This document shows, piece by piece, positions 7,636-31,113 of a DNA stretch of 31,489 nucleotides. The stretch's first letter is position 1. Each line of letters opens with the position of its first letter. The translations under genes and the position numbers were made by a program. This DNA is from a virus. Lineage: Duplodnaviria > Caudoviricetes. The notes under the pieces are model-generated. The model saw nothing but the letters and a program-made list of their open reading frames with translations, was not told the DNA's origin and made no database searches. The stretch spans positions 1 to 31,489 of the IMG/VR virus record IMGVR_UViG_3300029258_002129. One strand, given 5' to 3'.

Positions 7636-8076
7636 ATGGCATTGCAATGGGATGTTTTCAACAACATCAAGATCGACCTGCTGACCGTGCCGGCTGTCAA
7701 GACCGCGACAGTTACCTCGGACGCCGCCGACATGGCTGGCTACGAGGGCGCCCGGTTCGACGTGATCTTCGGCGAGAGCGGCAACAGCCTGTGCGGTGGC
7801 GTCAAGTGGGACTGCAAGTTGCAGGAGTCCGACGACGACGTGACGTATGCGGACGTCGACGCCGATGACGTGATCGGCAACACGAGCGATCAGTTCGGCC
7901 TTGTCGATGACGCAGCGAGCGACGGCGCGGTGTACAGCCTGGGCTACAAGGGCATCAAGCGGTACGTCAAGGTCGTCGTCACAGCCACCGGCACGCACGG
8001 CACCGGGATCATCATCACCATCGCGGTGAACCGGTTCAAGTCGATCAACCCGCCGAGCAACGTAGTCAACGCGTAA
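7636..8076 (+). CDS. Putative capsid decoration/cement protein
   Basis: AAGGAG RBS. Beta-rich 146 aa protein with DMAGY, KLQESDD and GIKRYVKV, as in genes that commonly follow HK97-type capsid genes. Confidence 0.7.
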   Translation: MALQWDVFNNIKIDLLTVPAVKTATVTSDAADMAGYEGARFDVIFGESGNSLCGGVKWDCKLQESDDDVTYADVDADDVIGNTSDQFGLVDDAASDGAVYSLGYKGIKRYVKVVVTATGTHGTGIIITIAVNRFKSINPPSNVVNA

Positions 8077-8179: not shown

Positions 8180-9304
8180 ATGCACAAGTACGTGAACAGC
8201 GTGGAGGATATCAGGCTGAAGCACGACAGCCCGCCGGCGGGATCGCCCCTGGCCGGCCGGTCGCTGGCGGTCAGTTGCCACATGGAGCGGTGGCTGGTAG
8301 CGGAGCGGCTGCTGCCGCTGTTTGCGAGCTTCGGCCACATTTGGGTTGTCAACGAGCATCGGTACACCGACCGGCGGCTAGCGGATGCGTTCCACGAGCG
8401 GGAGATCGACACGTTCATCGTGGGTGAGTACGCGAGCCACTGGAACATGCGCAGCCGGGTTCTGCGGCAGGCGGGCATCCGCGTGTACCACTACGGCCTT
8501 GGGATCATCAGCCACTACGACACCAGCCGCTTCGACTGGGGCATGTACGACGACGATACGTGGCTGCGCTGGGCAACCAGCCCGGAGCAGCTGCCGTCCG
8601 AGCCCGCGGTCGACACCGGCGAGCAGGTGGAGCGGGTGCTGATCATCGGCCAGGTGCCGGGCGATCAGGCGCTTCAGTACGGCGGCCGCGGCTATACCAT
8701 GGCGCAGCTGGTGCGGGAAGTCCGGATGGTGCTTCCGCGCGCTGAGCTGTGGTACCGGCCGCATCCGCGTACGCTGGAGCGCGTCGGCATTCCGCATAGC
8801 CTGCCGGATAGCTACCTGCTCGATCCCGATGACAAGATCCCGGTGCTTGTACCGGATCGCTTCACCGACGCCGAGACCATGGCGGCGATTCGGGCCCGGT
8901 ACCCGCGGGCGCAACTGACAGCCGGCGGCTCGCTCGGCGACAGCCTCGCGCAGGTCGACGCCGCGGCGATGGTCAATAGCACGGCCTGCTACGAGTGCGT
9001 ACAGGCAGGCGTCACGGCCTACATCGCGGGCGTGCCGCTGATTGATCTGCATCAGGGCGGCATGGCACTGCTGGGCAACATCACGCAGGGCCGGCATCTG
9101 CCCAGCACCGACTACAGAGACAAGCTGCGGGCGCAGCTGCTCAGCATGCAGTCACAGCCAGGGCAGGTATACGGCGCCCATGAGTTCATCGCCCACGAGC
9201 AGGCGATGCAGACGGCGCGGAATTGCCACGGGCTGAAGTGGGCCAGTCGAGATGAGGATGCCAATCTGATGTTGACGCCTGAGCTACAGGGGGTGGTGCT
9301 GTAA
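8180..9304 (+). CDS. KpsC/KpsS-like (Capsule_synth, GT107-like) glycosyltransferase
   Basis: VLIIGQVPGDQAL, LWYRPHP and AMVNSTACYECVQAGV match the Q-x2-D, R/K-x-HP and NS-x-G/A-x-EA motifs of this family. Paralogous to the N-terminus of 27054..28646. Confidence 0.75.
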   Translation: MHKYVNSVEDIRLKHDSPPAGSPLAGRSLAVSCHMERWLVAERLLPLFASFGHIWVVNEHRYTDRRLADAFHEREIDTFIVGEYASHWNMRSRVLRQAGIRVYHYGLGIISHYDTSRFDWGMYDDDTWLRWATSPEQLPSEPAVDTGEQVERVLIIGQVPGDQALQYGGRGYTMAQLVREVRMVLPRAELWYRPHPRTLERVGIPHSLPDSYLLDPDDKIPVLVPDRFTDAETMAAIRARYPRAQLTAGGSLGDSLAQVDAAAMVNSTACYECVQAGVTAYIAGVPLIDLHQGGMALLGNITQGRHLPSTDYRDKLRAQLLSMQSQPGQVYGAHEFIAHEQAMQTARNCHGLKWASRDEDANLMLTPELQGVVL

Positions 9305-22799: not shown

Positions 22800-23414
22800 A
22801 TGGCGACCGCTGCTGACATCCGCGAGGGTGACGTGCTGGCCTTTGGCGGCAATCCGTGCAACATCGGCCACCTGATCATCATGCTGCTTCAGCAGGCGAA
22901 CGGTGGTGACAATGACGGCGCGTGGCGGGCAGTACACGTCGGCATCGTCGTTACGTGGATGGGACGGTTGTTCCTCGCGGAGTTTCTGCTGCTTCGCATC
23001 TTGCCCTGGCCGCGGGGCGGGATGCGGCTGACGCCGCTTGAGCGGCGGTTGGCCGAGTACCCGCATGGGATCGTGCATCTGCCACTGGACGGCGACGCGC
23101 GGGCCCGGCTGGACAGTGACCGCCTGACCGAGATCACCGTCAAATCACAGTCCTTCTACTACAACATCTGGGGCCTCGTATTCGCGGTTCTCCGCTGCTT
23201 CATCGGCTGGCGGCGCCCCGGCAGCTACTTTTGCTCCGAGTGGGTACGCGCCGCGCTCAGCTACGCCCTGGCCTGGAACGGCAGCCGGAAGCTGCTGGTC
23301 CGCCGCGGCGGCAGGCTGATGTTCATCGAGGCGCGCGTGGAGCCCCAGCGATACAGCCCGTGGGATATCTGCCGGGCTCCAGTATTCGGTGATGCGGAGG
23401 TAGTCAGCGCGTAG
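22800..23414 (+). CDS. Permuted papain-like NlpC/P60 amidase (YiiX/YebB-like)
   Basis: IREGDVLAF, HVGI (His before Cys), YN, YFCSEWV, SPWD. Confidence 0.8.
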   Translation: MATAADIREGDVLAFGGNPCNIGHLIIMLLQQANGGDNDGAWRAVHVGIVVTWMGRLFLAEFLLLRILPWPRGGMRLTPLERRLAEYPHGIVHLPLDGDARARLDSDRLTEITVKSQSFYYNIWGLVFAVLRCFIGWRRPGSYFCSEWVRAALSYALAWNGSRKLLVRRGGRLMFIEARVEPQRYSPWDICRAPVFGDAEVVSA

Positions 23415-24664
23415 TGGATCACAGAGCGATAGTCGAGCGGCTTTGCCGCGAGCGGCGCGATCTCGTTAGCCAGGGCTACGACAATGCGCTCGGCTATCTC
23501 TCTGGGCTGCTGCCCGAGCTGGAGATTCACGGCTATCCCAGCGGCACCGAGGTCTGGAACTGGATCATCCCCGATCGCTGGGAAGTGGACGCGGCCTGGG
23601 TGGCGGCGCCGGACGGCCGCCGGATCATCGACATTGACCAGCACGGCCTGCACGTCGCGTCGTACTCTCAGCCGATCCGCCGGCGTGTGAGCCACGGCGA
23701 GCTGATGGCGCATCTGATCACGCGGCCCGATGCAGCGGATGCTGTCCCCTTCGGCTACAGGTACTACCGCGACGACTGGGCCTTCTGCCTTCAGCACAAC
23801 CGCCTGCCGGAGCTGTGCCACGAGTACTACGACGTGCTGATCGACTCGCGCTTCGAGCCCGGCCGGCTCAAGGTCGGCGAGGTCTACCTGCCCGGCGCGG
23901 AGCGCGACGAGATAGTGCTGATCGGCCATCTGTGCCACCCGTTCCAGGCAAATGACAATGCCAGCGGGATCGCCGTCCTGATGGGGCTGGCCGACAAGCT
24001 GCGGAACGCGGTGCACCAGTACAGCTACCGGATCATCCTCTGCCCCGAGACCATCGGCAGCATTGCCTACCTGGCCCACAATGAGCACCTGCTGCATCGG
24101 ATGCGGTACGGCATCGCGCTGGACATGCTGGGCAATTCGAACCGGCTGATCGCGCAGCTGACGCCGGGTGGCAATACGCAGCTGGACAGGGCCGCGGAAC
24201 TGGTGATCGGCGAGTGCGCGCCGTATCGGATGGTCATCGGCAACGACGAGCGGGTGCTTAATAGCGTCGGCGTGCGAGTACCGACGATCAGCATTTCGCG
24301 GGCTGCGCGCTGGGGAGAGACGAGCGAGCTGCCCTTCAGGGGCTACCACAGCAGCATGGACACGCCGGATGCGCTGGACTACGACCTGCTCGCCGAAGCG
24401 CAGGACGCCGTGGAGTGGATTCTGACGCTGCTCGACGTCAACTTCAGTCCGCAGTCGCGCTGCCGCGGGCCGATCATGCTGAGCAGGCACGACCTGTGGA
24501 TCGACCCAGGCGACGACCACGAGCGCGGGATACAGATGCAGATGGTGCTGGACCTGCTCGACGGCAAGCACACGGTAATCGACATCGCCCATCAGGTGGG
24601 CATCGACCCGGCGGAGCTGCTGGCGTGGCTCTACCGCATGCGAGAGAAGGAGTTGATCGGCTAG
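23414..24664 (+). CDS. DUF4910-family aminopeptidase-like polysaccharide biosynthesis protein with C-terminal HTH
   Basis: SGTEVWNWIIP..W, LHVASYSQP, HLCHP.QANDNASG, PETIGSIAYL, DERV, YHSSMDTP; winged-helix end LDGKHTVIDIA. Confidence 0.85.
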   Translation: MDHRAIVERLCRERRDLVSQGYDNALGYLSGLLPELEIHGYPSGTEVWNWIIPDRWEVDAAWVAAPDGRRIIDIDQHGLHVASYSQPIRRRVSHGELMAHLITRPDAADAVPFGYRYYRDDWAFCLQHNRLPELCHEYYDVLIDSRFEPGRLKVGEVYLPGAERDEIVLIGHLCHPFQANDNASGIAVLMGLADKLRNAVHQYSYRIILCPETIGSIAYLAHNEHLLHRMRYGIALDMLGNSNRLIAQLTPGGNTQLDRAAELVIGECAPYRMVIGNDERVLNSVGVRVPTISISRAARWGETSELPFRGYHSSMDTPDALDYDLLAEAQDAVEWILTLLDVNFSPQSRCRGPIMLSRHDLWIDPGDDHERGIQMQMVLDLLDGKHTVIDIAHQVGIDPAELLAWLYRMREKELIG

Positions 24665-24673
24665 GAGGCGCGG

Positions 24674-25027
24674 ATGAAGAAGCTGAAAGATGTACATGAC
24701 GTCGTTTTTATGGAGCAGCGCGACGATGCAGGCAACCTGGTTGAATTGCGGATCAGGGCGGTCAACAGCCGCGAGGGCAGCATTGATCTAGCGCTGCTAT
24801 CCGTGCGTCCAGTCCTTGGAGGCGACGGCCAACCCGCTCTGCAGTTGGACCAGCTGAAACTGCATGATACGGATGTACTTGATCTGCGCGCCGCGCTGAA
24901 TCGGCCAGTTCTGCTGAACGTCCGCCGTGATGAAATCGACGCGGAGTGGCGTCAGCACGAGGAGCTGCTGGCGAAGATGAGGGAAGCGGAGCGGCAATCA
25001 GGGGAGGCGGATACCAGTGGCCGCTGA
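24674..25027 (+). CDS. Hypothetical protein
   Basis: AGGAGG RBS; coupled to both neighbours. Confidence 0.6.
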   Translation: MKKLKDVHDVVFMEQRDDAGNLVELRIRAVNSREGSIDLALLSVRPVLGGDGQPALQLDQLKLHDTDVLDLRAALNRPVLLNVRRDEIDAEWRQHEELLAKMREAERQSGEADTSGR

Positions 25028-25811
25028 CTACCAGAGCCTCTATAACGAGCAGTACTTCGCGGCCTACGTTGATGATCCGGCGCGCGACGAGATGCAGCGG
25101 CAGGAGTTCCACCAGCGGCTTGAGAAGTGGCTTAACGCGTACTGGCAGCCTGCGGTGGATCGGGCGTTGAAGGCCGAGAATGGCAGTGCGGTGATTGGGC
25201 ATGTGCTCGATATCGGTTGCGGCCTGGGCCGATTCCTGGATTGGTACTTCGTGGACGTCAGCCGCTACATCAATGTGGATGATGTAGGTATCGGCGCGAT
25301 TACTGACTTCGTAGGTTGGCACAAGTACGGCATCGAGATCAGCGAGCATGCGCGGGCCATCGCCAACAAGAAGGGCATCCGGTTTCACTGGCTGGAGGGC
25401 AAGCCCGAGCAATTCGACCTGATCATCCTGCGCGGCAGCCTGCAACACCTCGACCGCCCGCTGGATACGCTGCACAACTGCTACGAGTGGCTGAAGCCCG
25501 GCGGGCTGATTGCGCTGCTGGCTACCCCGAACGCGGGCAGCGTGGTCTACCGGCTCTGGGGTAGCATGCCGATGCTGGACCCGGCGCGGAACTTCGTGGT
25601 CTTGAGCGACGCGCAGCTGACGAACTGCCTGAAGCACATCGGCTTTGACGTGCTGGAGGTCCACTATCCGTACAGGGGGACGCCGTATGCGAGGCCGCTG
25701 CGCGACGCCTGGCGGTTTGCGCTGCGGCTGCTGGGTATCCGGCGGCTGCCGTTCGCGTGGCCGCGCAACATGATGGAAGTATACGCCCGCAAGCCGGGCG
25801 GGGAGCAGTGA
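25017..25811 (+). CDS. Class I SAM-dependent methyltransferase
   Basis: Motif I VLDIGCGLGRFL, then YGIEIS, FDLI, LQHL..P and LKPGG. Confidence 0.9.
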   Translation: MAADYQSLYNEQYFAAYVDDPARDEMQRQEFHQRLEKWLNAYWQPAVDRALKAENGSAVIGHVLDIGCGLGRFLDWYFVDVSRYINVDDVGIGAITDFVGWHKYGIEISEHARAIANKKGIRFHWLEGKPEQFDLIILRGSLQHLDRPLDTLHNCYEWLKPGGLIALLATPNAGSVVYRLWGSMPMLDPARNFVVLSDAQLTNCLKHIGFDVLEVHYPYRGTPYARPLRDAWRFALRLLGIRRLPFAWPRNMMEVYARKPGGEQ

Positions 25812-26373: not shown

Positions 26374-27063
26374 ATGAGCCGTGACATCTTCGAGCATCTG
26401 GGGGAGCTGGGCGTCACCAACCCCAGCTTCATCGTGGCCAGCGGGCCCTGCGGCCGGCCGCACTACGATCAGATCCCGGCTGGCTACTTCATCGCGGCGA
26501 TCAACAGCGCCATCCTGCTGCCGCTGAAGTTCAGCCTGTGGATATGTACCACGCCCGCCGCGCACGTGCTGGACCTGCCCTGGTGGCCGGTCGGACTGGA
26601 CAGCGGGGTACCGAGTCTGATGCGCCGCAACCCGGCCAGCGTGCCGCCCTACGGCGAAGTCCCGATGCGCAATGAGCGGGCCACGTACACGATGCGCGGC
26701 CACTCGATCAAGCGCCACGCCCTGCCGGATGGCGCAGATACGCTCGATGAAGGAGCCAGCAGCGGGGGTGTAGGAATTGCGCTGCTGCACCACGCGCTGC
26801 TGGAGCAGTTCCCGGACGGCCCGCGCGAGATCATCACCTGCGGCTTCGAGCTGATGGGCCGCGCGCACTTCGACGGGTCGGTCACGTGGCATGGCGAGGG
26901 CGACGGCTGGGCTACTCGCCGCGAGCACGCCAATAAGCTGATCCGCCGCGCCGCCGAGCTGGGTACGCGGGTGCGGTCGCTGTCGCCGGTACATCCCGAG
27001 CTCGAGCTGGAGCGCGTACCGGAAGCCGAGATCGCCGGCTGGCAGGAGGCCGCGTGCAGCTGA
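26374..27063 (+). CDS. Maf/DUF115 (GT29/GT42-like fold) putative glycosyltransferase
   Basis: FIVASGPCG, IAAINSA, SSGGVGIALL, EIITCGFEL...HF. Confidence 0.6.
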   Translation: MSRDIFEHLGELGVTNPSFIVASGPCGRPHYDQIPAGYFIAAINSAILLPLKFSLWICTTPAAHVLDLPWWPVGLDSGVPSLMRRNPASVPPYGEVPMRNERATYTMRGHSIKRHALPDGADTLDEGASSGGVGIALLHHALLEQFPDGPREIITCGFELMGRAHFDGSVTWHGEGDGWATRREHANKLIRRAAELGTRVRSLSPVHPELELERVPEAEIAGWQEAACS

Positions 27064-28646
27064 TCAGTACATGCACCGATCGCGACAGCCCGCTGATCGA
27101 CCGGCGGCTGGCCGTATCGCGGTTCCTGGGTAAGCAGATCAGCCGCGGCCGCTGGCCCGAGCTGTTCCCATTCTTCGCCGAGGTCCACGAGCTTGACGAG
27201 CGCGGCAAGAATGACGATCAGCTGCTGGCCGAGTGCCAGGACGCGGGAATCGATACGTTCATGGCGCATGAGTACATGGCCCACAGCGATGCGCGCCGGC
27301 GCCGGTTCCGGCAGGCCGGCCTCAGGTACTGGCACATCGGGCTCGGCGTGGCTGCGCACTACCGGACCGCGCGGATCGACTGGGCGATGTACGAATCGGA
27401 CACCTGGCTCAGGCACGCCACCAGCCCGGACAGGCTGCCGGCAGCCAGCGCGATCCCGGCGGACAGCCCGATCAAGCGGGTACTCGTGATCGGGCAGGTC
27501 CACGGGGATCAGGCCCAGCAGTATGGTGGGCTGGGCTTTAACAGCTGCCTGCTGATGAGCGAAGTCCGCGATCTGTTGCCGGACGCCGAGATCAGGTACC
27601 GCCCGCACCCGGAGTCCCTGCGGGCCGTCCCCGAGCACAAGATCACCGTCGACACGACGTGGTACCCCGACCCGTACCTTGCCTGGCCCGACGAGGATGT
27701 ACTGATCTCGCAGAACCGCACGCTCGCTGACGATATCGAGTGGGCGGACGCCTGCGCGACGATCAACAGCACTGCCGCGTATGAGTCGCTGCTGGCCGGC
27801 GTGCCGGTCTACCACGCCGGGATACCGCTACTGCACGAGCATCCGGGCGGCTGCTTCAGGCTCGGCCAGCTGGCGGACGGCAAGCGGTACGTGAGCCGCG
27901 ACTACCAAGACCGGCTGCGCGGCCGTCTCAACGAAATGCAGGGGCAGGTTTACGGCCTAGGCCCGGAGCTGTTCCTGAAGCATGAGCTGTACATGCTGGG
28001 CGACTGGACCGGCGAGGCCGTAGCCCCGCGGCCCAAAGTCCGCGGGCGGTGCCTGGGCGACCTGGACAGCTTCCGGCAGGCGTTCGATCCCGGCAGCCAC
28101 GTGCTGATCTGCGGTACCGGCCCGTCGCTACACCGCGCCAGGGACATCAACCTGAAGGGCTACACCGTGATCGCCGTCAACAGCGCCTGCAATCTGGTCG
28201 ATCCGGACCTGCTGATGCTGATGAACGTCAACTGCTGGCGGTACCCGCTGATCTGGGAGCACCTGCGCGGGCGCATGCACCTGCTGAGCGACCTGCTGGC
28301 GGCGAACGCCGGGCGCTATCCCTACGACTACCACACCTTCAAGCACCTGCCGCCGGTCGATGATCCGGTATTCGAGCCGTGGCTGCTCAGCAGCAGCGCG
28401 GGGGTCGCGTTCCGCGCGATTCAGCTGGCCGCGAGCTACCCGCAGGTCAAAGCGATCCACATGGTTGGCCTGGATAGCTACAACTGGCAGGTGCACTGGC
28501 AGCACGTGGACAAGGCGCCGGACGGCCCACCGTTCAAGCCGTATGGCGCCAAAGTGCGGGCGGCGAACAAGCTGATCCGAGCCCTGAGGACTCGGATCGA
28601 CTTCGCACACTTCGGGCCTACGAGCCTGAAGGTCAAGGTGAAGTGA
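27054..28646 (+). CDS. Two-domain glycosyltransferase: KpsC/KpsS (GT107)-like N-terminus fused to a Maf/DUF115-like C-terminus
   Basis: N-terminal VLVIGQVHGDQA, IRYRPHP, TINSTAAYESLLAGVPV. C-terminal VLICGTGPSL, VIAVNSA, SSSAGVAFRAIQLA, IHMVGLD. Confidence 0.75.
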   Translation: MQLISTCTDRDSPLIDRRLAVSRFLGKQISRGRWPELFPFFAEVHELDERGKNDDQLLAECQDAGIDTFMAHEYMAHSDARRRRFRQAGLRYWHIGLGVAAHYRTARIDWAMYESDTWLRHATSPDRLPAASAIPADSPIKRVLVIGQVHGDQAQQYGGLGFNSCLLMSEVRDLLPDAEIRYRPHPESLRAVPEHKITVDTTWYPDPYLAWPDEDVLISQNRTLADDIEWADACATINSTAAYESLLAGVPVYHAGIPLLHEHPGGCFRLGQLADGKRYVSRDYQDRLRGRLNEMQGQVYGLGPELFLKHELYMLGDWTGEAVAPRPKVRGRCLGDLDSFRQAFDPGSHVLICGTGPSLHRARDINLKGYTVIAVNSACNLVDPDLLMLMNVNCWRYPLIWEHLRGRMHLLSDLLAANAGRYPYDYHTFKHLPPVDDPVFEPWLLSSSAGVAFRAIQLAASYPQVKAIHMVGLDSYNWQVHWQHVDKAPDGPPFKPYGAKVRAANKLIRALRTRIDFAHFGPTSLKVKVK

Positions 28647-29513: not shown

Positions 29514-29660
29514 TTGACCAGTACTGGGCTGCTGAGCAGTACTGCTCGGGCTGGCTATACTGGTCCTGTGAGTGAAACCCCCGCAGAGCGGGGGTGTGGC
29601 TCGTTCCGGAAGCACCGTCAAGCACCAAGGGAACGAGCGGTTACATCGTAGACGAGGTGA
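29514..29660 (+). promoter_or_regulatory. Structured promoter/leader region of the parB-mom operon
   Basis: CAGTACTG at 29519 and 29537 and CTATACTG at 29555 (18-bp period); TATACT at 29556; hairpins ACCCCCGC/GCGGGGGT and GCTCGTTCC/GGAACGAGC; RBS GAGGTGA. Confidence 0.5.
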
Positions 29661-29667
29661 CCGTATC

Positions 29668-30321
29668 GTGTCCAGCAGTGCGGAATCCCTCATCGATGAT
29701 CCCGTCGATGAGGCTGTCCGGATTACACGGATGTCGCTGACGGAGCTGAAGCCAGCGCCACACAATCCACGCACGATCAGCGACGCTGCCCTGAAGGGGC
29801 TGCGCGCGAGTATCCGGCGGTTCGGGCTGGTGGAGCCTATCGTCTGGAACAAGCGCAGTGGGCAGGTGGTAGGCGGCCACCAGCGGATCAAGGCGCTACA
29901 GGCCGAGGGGGTAGATGTAGCGGACGTCGTGATCGTGGACCTGGACGAGACTGACGAGAAGGCGCTGAATCTGGCGCTAAACAACCCAGCGATTGCGGGC
30001 GAGTTCACGCTGGACGTGCAGGCGCTGATTGGTGAAGTGCAGGCAGTGCAGCCGGGGCTGGTGCCGGAGCTGCGATTCGATGCGCTGCTGGAGCAGGCCG
30101 GTATGTTCGAGGTCGGCGAAGCTGAAATGCCTGAGCTGCGCAGTGGCGACCGCGAGCCGTTCCAGCAGATGACCTTCACGCTGGCTGATAGCCAGGCCGA
30201 GTGCGTGAAGGCTGCGCTGGCAAAGGCGAAGGCAGCGGGTGCATTCAACGGCACCGGTAACGAGAATAGCAACGGGAACGCGCTGGCTCGCATCGTGGAG
30301 GATTACCTTGGGCAGGGCTAA
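29668..30321 (+). CDS. ParB/Srx N-terminal domain protein associated with DNA modification
   Basis: GAGGTGA RBS before GTG29668; LKPAPHNPR, SIRRFGLVEPIVWN, VVGGHQR, EKALNLALN. Confidence 0.88.
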   Translation: MSSSAESLIDDPVDEAVRITRMSLTELKPAPHNPRTISDAALKGLRASIRRFGLVEPIVWNKRSGQVVGGHQRIKALQAEGVDVADVVIVDLDETDEKALNLALNNPAIAGEFTLDVQALIGEVQAVQPGLVPELRFDALLEQAGMFEVGEAEMPELRSGDREPFQQMTFTLADSQAECVKAALAKAKAAGAFNGTGNENSNGNALARIVEDYLGQG

Positions 30322-31078
30322 GGATATCCGCGTCAAGCCGATCAGCGCCCAGGATGCGAATCGGATCATAAGGCAGCTTCACTACAGCGGGAAAGTAGTA
30401 CAGAACAGCCAGCTTCACCTAGGCGTTTTCCTCGATGGGAAATGCGGCGGCGCGCTGCAATTTGGGCCGTCGCTGGATAAGCGGAAGATCATCGGACTGG
30501 TGGCTGATACCAAGTGGAATGAGTTCCTGGAGCTGAACCGCTTGGCGCTTGCTGACTGGCTGCCACGCAACAGTGAATCGAGAGCGATTGCGGTTGCCAT
30601 GCGCCTGCTCAGGCGGCACTACCCGCATCTGAAGTGGGTTGTCAGTTTCGCGGATGGGACGCAGTGCGGCGATGGCACGATCTATCGTGCGGCGGGATTC
30701 GTGCTGACTGGTATCCGTGCCAACGCCACCATCATGGAGCTTGACGGCGAGGTGTTTACTGATATCGGCTTGCGTACCGGCACTGAGCGCCGAACGAAAG
30801 CACGACAGATCGTCGCGGCCAAAACACCGGACAATCCCAATTATCCTAGGCCAGGCGGACGGTATTGGAGCAGTTATGTGCAGGAGCAGGGCATCGGTCG
30901 AGTATTGCCAGGATTCCAGCTCCGCTATATCTACTTCCTCGATCCTGCCTGCCGCGCCAAGCTGACCGTACCGGAGTTACCATACAGCGCTATCGAGGAA
31001 GCCGGTGCCGGCATGTACAAGGGCAAGCCGAGATCATGCGCCAGTAGTGTAGTGGCAGCACAGCCTACACACCAGTAG
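30308..31078 (+). CDS. mom: Mom-family (GNAT-fold) DNA adenine hypermodification enzyme
   Basis: GGAGG RBS before TTG30308. HYSGK, LGVF, ELNRLAL...PRNSESRAI, YPHLKWVVSFAD and GTIYRAAGF resemble the phage Mu Mom motifs. Confidence 0.85.
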   Translation: MGRAKDIRVKPISAQDANRIIRQLHYSGKVVQNSQLHLGVFLDGKCGGALQFGPSLDKRKIIGLVADTKWNEFLELNRLALADWLPRNSESRAIAVAMRLLRRHYPHLKWVVSFADGTQCGDGTIYRAAGFVLTGIRANATIMELDGEVFTDIGLRTGTERRTKARQIVAAKTPDNPNYPRPGGRYWSSYVQEQGIGRVLPGFQLRYIYFLDPACRAKLTVPELPYSAIEEAGAGMYKGKPRSCASSVVAAQPTHQ

Positions 31079-31113
31079 GCAGGCGGCGGTTCGAACCCGA
31101 CCCTGGCGCTCCA
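31038..31113 (+). tRNA. Atypical tRNA-Gly-like RNA (76 nt, encoded CCA)
   Basis: Acceptor GCGCCAG/CTGGCGC plus T-CCA. D arm GTGT-AGTGGCA-GCAC. Anticodon arm GCCTAC-ACACCA-GTAGGC. T arm GGCGG-TTCGAAC-CCG(A)CC. Confidence 0.8.

Follow-up and report, generated by a model that had tools for sequence, protein, structure and literature searches.

The Mom protein of bacteriophage Mu transfers glycine from Gly-tRNA-Gly onto N6 of adenine in double-stranded DNA, and its product, 6-NcmdA, blocks restriction, as described for Mu Mom only (Silva et al., 2026, PMC13219725). All three E. coli tRNA-Gly isoacceptors serve Mu Mom while mischarged Gly-tRNA-Ala fails, and the recently identified donor is treated as drawn from the host pool (PMC13219725). 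Most bacterial aminoacyl-tRNA is held by elongation factor Tu (EF-Tu). In Staphylococcus aureus the non-proteogenic tRNA-Gly species NP1-NP3 are the donors for FmhB, FemA and FemB (PMC7826273; PMC3239215). Ordinary Gly-tRNA is sequestered by EF-Tu from FmhB, which inhibits FmhB in vitro, and since the NP species bind EF-Tu weakly they escape this sequestration; this 2020 paper knows dedicated non-ribosomal tRNAs from staphylococci alone (PMC7826273). In the ssrA genomic islands of Dehalococcoides, 16 modules carry a conserved 76-bp tRNA-Gly-like "pseudo-tRNA" with the anticodon DCC within the initial 150 bp of a mom gene next to parB, and the available text of that paper proposes no function for it (McMurdie et al., 2011, PMC3146451). 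Here we describe a tRNA-Gly-like RNA that overlaps the mom-like gene of a tailed virus (Caudoviricetes; IMG/VR record IMGVR_UViG_3300029258_002129, positions 1 to 31,489). The whole stretch of 31,489 nucleotides is referred to as the window. The 76-nucleotide (nt) element was found to belong to a conserved, covarying tRNA-Gly-like RNA family tied to mom genes and present in hundreds of further viral sequences.

The mom gene and the RNA of the window have the following features.

30308..31078, plus strand: mom, encoding a Mom-family GNAT protein of 256 amino acids (PF25680, match to 8BV8, AlphaFold model)
31038..31113, plus strand: tRNA-Gly-like RNA of 76 nt with encoded CCA (ARAGORN, Rfam, family model, covariation)
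31069..31074, plus strand: anticodon-type loop of 6 nt, ACACCA, closed by a 6-bp stem, with C35-C36 at 31072-31073 and no U33
31076..31078, plus strand: TAG stop codon of mom, inside the 3' strand of the anticodon stem (sequence)
31100, plus strand: A bulged between T-stem pairs 50-64 and 51-63, a predicted EF-Tu antideterminant (A in 177 of 177 distinct RNAs from protein-selected loci, as ascertained with the family model)
31110..31113, plus strand: discriminator U73 and CCA (U73 in 175 and encoded CCA in 140 of the same 177 RNAs)

The acceptor stem (31038-31044/31103-31109) has seven pairs including G1-C72, C2-G71 and G3-C70, and is followed by U73 at 31110 and CCA at 31111-31113. The D stem is formed by 31047-31050/31058-31061, the six pairs of the anticodon stem (31063-31068/31075-31080) close the loop that lacks U33, and the T stem (31085-31089/31097-31102) contains the bulged A31100. 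The cloverleaf overlaps the mom open reading frame (ORF) by 41 nt. All of these details were found in the sequence as the initial annotation had given them, namely the 76-nt cloverleaf with its CCA, the overlap, the TAG in the anticodon stem, the three acceptor pairs, U73, the loop and the bulge. ARAGORN placed a tRNA, reported as tRNA-??? with no anticodon assigned, exactly at 31038-31113 as its sole call in the window. The Rfam tRNA model (RF00005) scored the RNA at 27.2 bits, below its 29-bit cut-off, and Rfam holds no dedicated family for it. By itself the folding energy is unremarkable, with a z of -1.89 and 9 of 200 shuffles folding equally well. The RNA departs from a canonical elongator tRNA in its Rfam score, in lacking a 7-nt loop with U33 and in lacking an unbulged 5-bp T stem. 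It has the G1-C72, C2-G71, U73, C35, C36 and CCA of a bacterial glycyl-tRNA synthetase (GlyRS) substrate. With its D arm and TTC T loop kept, the window copy is among the more canonical members of the family.

A covariance model, R1, was trained on 25 of the homologous 76-nt RNAs with the window left out, and it scored the window RNA at 62.8 bits (E 5e-13) as the sole match in 31.5 kb. Viral mom loci were picked by protein similarity alone; 80 were fetched, and 59 were distinct past the conserved core, one of them being the window virus. In these and the other protein-selected sets, which hold close relatives and some shared contigs and do not represent independent events, R1 matched at all 58 distinct viral loci besides that of the window (25 had supplied its training RNAs), at 77 of 80 metagenome mom loci, the sequence of each of the other three ending at the gene, at 9 of 10 genome mom loci and, for a second and distant clade of Mom, at 80 of 80 loci. 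Loci of this clade were found with a single-protein query, since the clade alignment was too diverse for the locus scan. R1 gave no match at any of 44 Mu-type loci or in the whole Mu genome. In a MAFFT alignment of 32 RNAs, 92.6% of the cells were paired and 15 of 24 pairs changed on both sides, while among 75 model-aligned RNAs, which are fitted to the structure, this was the case for 21 of 24 pairs; none of 500 shuffles reached the score in either alignment. The expectation from the initial annotation that mom homologues carry a covarying cloverleaf in which U73, the CC and the T-stem bulge are kept was thus borne out with a model built without the window. Default ARAGORN detected the element at only 4 of the 80 viral loci. 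A blastn search of cultured phages with two of the elements returned T5-like tRNA-Ala matches or none, the method being too insensitive; the cultured carriers were identified through protein searches instead.

The linkage was also found in the opposite direction. Viral contigs were scanned for a motif of bulged T arm plus acceptor, and 80 of at least 120 matches were analyzed with their flanks. A Mom-profile match was located within 3 kb at 76 of these 80 loci chosen by RNA motif alone. The four loci without Mom comprise two at contig edges, one facing an opposite-strand GNAT and one decayed copy after parB. Pfam confirmed Mom for 48 of 51 low-scoring profile matches, and the remaining three are fragments. 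In a matched control using one T-loop plus acceptor motif, Mom was found within 3 kb at 2 of 80 loci at canonical spacing and at 62 of 80 with one extra base. Since the Mom profile was partly trained on overlapping contigs, the count was repeated on unseen RNAs; Mom was nearby at 38 of 52 overall and at 32 of 34 with the bulged A, and Pfam confirmed 38 of the 38. A FastTree phylogeny was built from 99 of 312 proteins after redundancy filtering. Three deep groups of Mom in this tree have the RNA, and Mu, JD024 and pAEv1818 form a group among these that lacks it. The tree is midpoint-rooted and its sampling is biased to RNA-bearing loci, so loss of the RNA in the Mu lineage is a suggestion and not an established order of events.

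Several of the scanned loci, referred to by their L numbers, deviated from the common arrangement. On the contig of L050, which is the same contig as that of L160, two RNA copies (754-830 and 2207-2283) lie 1.4 kb apart, and the locus has a second Mom-profile ORF that was placed in the distant clade on the tree. Pairs of mom genes were also observed at L219, L249, L427, L473 and L485. The decayed copy at L245 (3001-3074) has A1 and a loop without CC. It directly follows parB and lacks any mom gene within 3 kb, so that enzyme and RNA may have decayed together here. At L192 the RNA (558-631) is antisense to a truncated GNAT (17-553) that Pfam assigns to Acetyltransf_1 and not to Mom, while the nearly identical RNA of L483 is antisense to a clear Mom. 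Finally, L430, L436, L438, L441, L447, L455, L463 and L471 carry tRNA-Gly-like sequences with an extra T-arm base and no Mom within 3 kb. For these eight the partner may be further off, or they may form a separate class.

Conservation within the family is uneven. Among 130 distinct protein-selected RNAs, G1-C72 and C2-G71 were found in all 130, G3-C70 in 125 and U73 in 128, and acceptor pairs 4-7 vary freely but stay paired. The pairs flanking the T-stem bulge covary, and conservation ends at position 76. The positions kept agree with the bacterial glycine identity set of tRNA-Gly (PMC9976931), to which the initial annotation had correctly assigned the acceptor and anticodon positions of the window RNA. 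The CC is located in a regular loop in 112 of the 130 RNAs, and these 112 were compared with 50 of 59 canonical viral tRNA-Gly. U33 was found in 32 of the 112 compared to 46 of the 50, U8 in 11 compared to 45, and A34 in 60 compared to none, while positions 32 and 38 can pair in 107 of the 112 and in 21 of the 50. The commonest start of the T loop is TGC (48 of 112). The length is 67-72 nt in 77 of the 177 RNAs, mostly D-armless ones. Position -2 (31036 in the window) is A in 133 of the 177; this could reflect a leader preference of RNase P, or alternatively could be an effect of lysine codons.

The position of the RNA relative to the mom frame was recorded at 300 loci. It lies wholly in the 3' end of mom at 244, holds the stop codon at 32, lies in the 5' end at 14 (in 13 cases inside the stop-to-stop frame), comes after the stop at 8 and runs antisense at 2. 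Across loci the RNA is read in all three frames, which argues for selection on the RNA and not on the peptide; conservation of the Mom tail at the peptide level was rejected on this ground. A stop codon inside the RNA was likewise rejected as a conserved feature, being found at only 32 of the 300 loci. In-frame stops were found in 26 of 159 RNA clusters compared to 184 of 318 in the other frames, and the stop-poor frame tracks the frame used: 11 vs. 61 of 77 for frame-1 users, 10 vs. 30 of 68 for frame-2 users, and 0 in the used frame vs. 11 and 10 of 12 for the 5' class. These contrasts rest on few independent lineages and hint at selection for read-through. Antisense copies are located at L085, L090 and L483, distant copies at L028 and L206, and tandem copies in phage Y8A and at L033, L157, L161, L167 and L259, all of which fit a diffusible product. 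Overlap of the RNA with the mom frame is thus usual but not required.

Cultured phages carry the RNA as well, so that its role can be tested. Psychrobacter phage vB_PmaS_Y8A has two unannotated tandem copies after the mom stop, at 7786-7853 and 7858-7926 of its record, and Salinibacter phage B2_17 has one RNA of 90 bits that is annotated as tRNA-Gly. The variants of Arthrobacter phages BarretLemon and Sicarius2 lack the bulge, and a near-canonical antisense tRNA-Gly is present in Microbacterium phage Appa. Unbulged Mom-adjacent tRNA-Gly-like RNAs were observed in actinobacterial phages and one metagenomic contig (L674:2154-2228, L675:2107-2180, L676:2101-2174 and L325), and the BarretLemon RNA has A51-U63 in place of the bulge.

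The mom-like ORF of the initial annotation was confirmed to encode Mom. ORF 30308-31078 matches PF25680 with 177 bits (E 4.9e-52; curated cut-off 27.1 bits) and PHROG 1384, and its sole PDB sequence match is Mu Mom, 8BV8 (E 1.8e-29). An AlphaFold model had a pLDDT of 81, with low confidence for the last ~13 codons, which lie inside the RNA, and its best Foldseek match was again 8BV8 (E 8e-20, TM 0.64/0.73), the next non-Mom match being at 1e-5. Mu residues H58, Y59, R111, S124, D149 and Y159 align with H25, Y26, R78, S91, D116 and Y126 of the window protein. R151, W48 and W181 of Mu are replaced by T/Q, Q and V/F, respectively, and these positions are variable across 59 aligned Mom proteins. 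In Mu Mom R151 is essential and W48 is dimer-related, and each of the three is needed for full activity (PMC13219725). The window Mom is predicted to be a tRNA-dependent DNA N6-adenine glycyltransferase; the initial annotation had named Gly-tRNA-Gly as the reported donor of Mom, in agreement with the work on Mu Mom (PMC13219725).

We consider it likely, judging from the sequences, that the RNA is a chargeable, non-decoding private glycyl donor for the neighboring Mom. This reading fits best because the GlyRS set and the CCA end are kept, features needed on the ribosome are lost, the bulge is placed at the site read by EF-Tu, and the RNA is linked to Mom. RNase P together with 3' trimming or CCA addition would release the RNA from the phage transcript, and host GlyRS would charge it via G1-C72, C2-G71, U73 and C35-C36. 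Pairs 49-65, 50-64 and 51-63 set the affinity for EF-Tu (PMC11231383; PMC3239215), as the initial annotation had stated, and it had also correctly noted that staphylococcal non-proteinogenic tRNA-Gly species escape EF-Tu through T-stem changes (PMC7826273; PMC3239215). Through the bulged A among these three pairs the RNA would be excluded from the pool bound to EF-Tu, and a loop of 5-6 nt that lacks U33 would prevent decoding. Mom would then draw on a free charged pool and place the glycine on adenine N6 of the phage DNA, which would be disguised in this way from the restriction enzymes of the host. The weakest step concerns the location in the mom frame, where a given transcript would serve as a source of protein or of RNA but not of both, possibly coupling the two in amount.

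A number of observations weigh against a private donor. Mu Mom uses ordinary isoacceptors and Mu lacks the RNA, so Mom chemistry needs no such RNA; Mu Mom also probably reads only the acceptor end of the tRNA (PMC13219725). Mom was found with no match to the model in Mu, the 44 Mu-type loci, JD024, pAEv1818, Melnitz, Riggi, Darwin, phiEf11, P2-71 and L089, and with only two weak matches, far from mom, in PX29; the RNA is thus dispensable for some Moms. The T-stem bulge is not universal, being absent from BarretLemon, Sicarius2, Appa and L325, and no EF-Tu measurement on a bulged T stem was found in the literature searched. A Gly-RNA free of EF-Tu would be more exposed to hydrolysis. The window Mom lacks R151, W48 and W181, each required for full activity in Mu, and there is no need for a purely trans-acting RNA to overlap the mom frame, as it does at 289 of the 300 loci. 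Of the private glycyl tRNA proposed in the initial annotation, the conservation, the covariation and the retention of the GlyRS set and the bulge stood, while Mu Mom works without such an RNA. The proposed feedback through excision of the stop codon fared less evenly: it is in line with the overlap and with the stop-poor used frame, but the stop lies inside the RNA at only 32 of the 300 loci, and separate, tandem and antisense copies exist.

The overlap at either gene end, together with the lower stop frequency in the used frame (26 of 159 vs. 184 of 318 clusters), would also be expected of a cis-acting element. The cloverleaf, in the mom message or cleaved from it, would then set the Mom level, either by binding GlyRS or by an RNase P cut that leaves a non-stop or headless mRNA, and the free RNA would be a by-product. 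The thrS operator is a precedent for binding of a synthetase to an mRNA element, and mom of Mu is annotated as being translationally controlled by Com. We nevertheless rate such a role as unlikely on its own, since antisense, downstream, distant and tandem copies are unable to act in cis on the mom message, the RNA occurs at either end of the gene, and the conservation of U73-CCA stops at position 76, a limit of consequence for a free 3' end; few independent lineages, moreover, underlie the frame contrasts. A donor role and a cis-regulatory role may both hold. If instead the RNA were a slightly odd translational tRNA-Gly topping up a glycine pool drained by Mom, near-canonical members such as those of Appa, L086, L090 and the 5' class, the tRNA-Gly annotation in Appa and B2_17, and the D arm and TTC T loop of the window copy would be accounted for. 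This is very unlikely, given that U33 and U8 are mostly lost, A34 is common, positions 32-38 are paired, the D arm is missing in about four of ten RNAs, and the T-stem bulge is absent, by its spacing, from the canonical control set.

The retained U73 and G71 are also determinants of the Gly-tRNA acetylase TacT (PMC9976931), and the anticodon loop is remodelled, as might be expected of a decoy or insurance RNA that absorbs or withstands host defenses directed at tRNA, such as Gly-tRNA-acetylating toxins and anticodon nucleases. The link to mom would then reflect only the vulnerability of Mom phages to loss of Gly-tRNA. However, U73 and G71 belong to the GlyRS set too, and a decoy has no need to sit in or beside mom, yet the RNA does so at 76 of 80 loci; we give a decoy little chance of being correct. 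A tRNA-like processing signal at which RNase P separates mom from downstream genes, or a roleless relic or attachment (att) core, could explain why the RNA is often located just before terminase genes and why its folding energy reaches a z of only -1.89. It does not account for the retention of C35-C36 and of acceptor pairs 1-3 against a background of covariation in other pairs, and is highly improbable. The initial annotation had allowed that the 3' half might be an att core identical to a host tRNA. This was rejected, as exact matches to 80 canonical viral tRNA-Gly-type ends extend over no more than 14 nt, the longest lying in the T loop, and those to the host tRNA regions of two prophage-bearing genomes over no more than 9 nt, the window virus's own host not being identified. 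No tyrosine integrase (PF00589) was found in either of two longer partial records of the window virus; serine recombinases were not searched for.

A wider form of the private-donor reading, possible but on balance doubtful, is that most non-Mu Mom genes are two-product loci encoding a ribosome-orthogonal glycine carrier. The bulged A would be an EF-Tu off-switch, and excision would destroy the message, so that each transcript yields enzyme or cofactor. This would make the RNA the first cofactor of its kind, a viral aminoacyl-RNA reserved for DNA modification, with Mu as an exception through loss. A phage-made carrier escaping EF-Tu would, if true, explain how Mom is supplied with glycine without starving late protein synthesis, and would extend dedicated non-ribosomal tRNAs to viruses and to DNA chemistry. 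The family further supplies a naturally occurring set of predicted minimal GlyRS substrates (67-78 nt, many of them D-armless), and its bulged A is a candidate for an EF-Tu antideterminant of one base. As regards annotation, many Mom proteins have a variable tail at the C- or N-terminus that is an RNA gene, mostly overlooked by standard finders. The anatomy of a mom-embedded tRNA-Gly-like element is already in print for one genus, Dehalococcoides (PMC3146451). Within the literature searched, which left most subscription papers outside, nothing was found that connects a tRNA-like RNA encoded in mom with the glycyl donor, nor were the family-wide linkage, the T-stem bulge or the D-armless forms. 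The main text of PMC13219725 does not contain the terms "overlap", "tRNA-like" or "encoded tRNA", and the available portions of the Mom preprint, PMC7824862 and PMC10011098 hold nothing on a mom-encoded donor RNA.

The window is a partial tailed-phage record with genes for portal, protease, capsid, tape measure and a CHAP lysin. Upstream of the mom coding region two further features were identified.

29731..30321, plus strand: ParB-N-domain protein, directly 5' of mom (PF02195 with 31 bits, PHROG 620)
30297..30301, plus strand: GGAGG resembling a Shine-Dalgarno sequence, 6 nt upstream of the TTG start codon of mom (sequence)

The ParB-domain gene overlaps the start of mom by 14 nt. Its start was inferred to be the ATG at 29731, the open frame itself starting at 29572. 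Homologues share the N-terminus of the window mom at its start, in support of TTG 30308. Single-query tblastn detected a ParB-like gene upstream of mom, no more than 1.5 kb away, at 42 of 160 loci, and the parB-mom pair is annotated in Y8A, phiEf11 and Appa too. A promoter and terminator scan of the region gave nothing exceeding the shuffled expectation, and the plus strand was without any. Elsewhere in the window, ORFs 8180-9304 and 27054-28646 have a common motif (IGQVPGDQA/IGQVHGDQA) and no Pfam or PHROG match. We take the motif to recall capsule-polysaccharide biosynthesis proteins. A DUF4910/peptidase M28 gene (23414-24664) and a methyltransferase gene (25017-25811) are located near the motif ORFs, and the region is possibly a virion or DNA glycan-modification cluster.

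Among the known systems, Mu Mom and the window Mom share family, fold and H58, Y59, R111, S124, D149 and Y159 (Mu numbering). The whole Mu genome is devoid of such an RNA and its Mom relies on host tRNA-Gly, whereas the window has its own RNA beside mom. The gene upstream of mom is com, a translational regulator by annotation through which Mu controls mom, in Mu and parB in the window. A basic extension of ~33 residues at the N-terminus of Mu Mom is missing in the window protein (30308 vs. L093:1393). Part of this extension is proposed to bind tRNA (PMC13219725), and it may offset the want of an RNA of Mu's own. Canonical tRNA-Gly (RF00005) shares the cloverleaf, the acceptor end and C35-C36 with the mom RNA, and R1 scores host tRNA genes at 31-47 bits. 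The mom RNA family differs from it by the T-stem bulge, the frequent loss of U8 and U33, the common A34 and the linkage to mom (62 of 80 loci vs. 2 of 80).

The Dehalococcoides pseudo-tRNA resembles the window RNA as described in being 76 nt long and tRNA-Gly-like, with an NCC anticodon, embedded in the mom ORF and with parB directly upstream (PMC3146451). It lies at the 5' end of mom while the window RNA lies at the 3' end, and the 14 loci of the 5' class share its position. It is the case of a single genus and of genomic islands, and it predates the discovery of the donor; compared by its published description, it probably belongs to the same RNA family. The staphylococcal NP tRNA-Gly species are likened to the mom RNAs by features and not by homology comparison. 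Both keep glycine identity and have a TGC T loop, the commonest one of the mom RNAs, and a 6-bp anticodon stem with a 5-nt loop, and the partner of each is a tRNA-dependent transferase of the GNAT fold. As for an NP donor tRNA, the mom RNA co-occurs with such a transferase (76 of 80 and 62 of 80 loci vs. 2 of 80 at canonical spacing). The staphylococcal species are chromosomal and free-standing, have weak T-stem pairs that lower their affinity for EF-Tu, and serve cell-wall synthesis, whereas the mom RNA is viral, lies within the frame of its enzyme, carries a bulged A, is often D-armless and would serve DNA modification.

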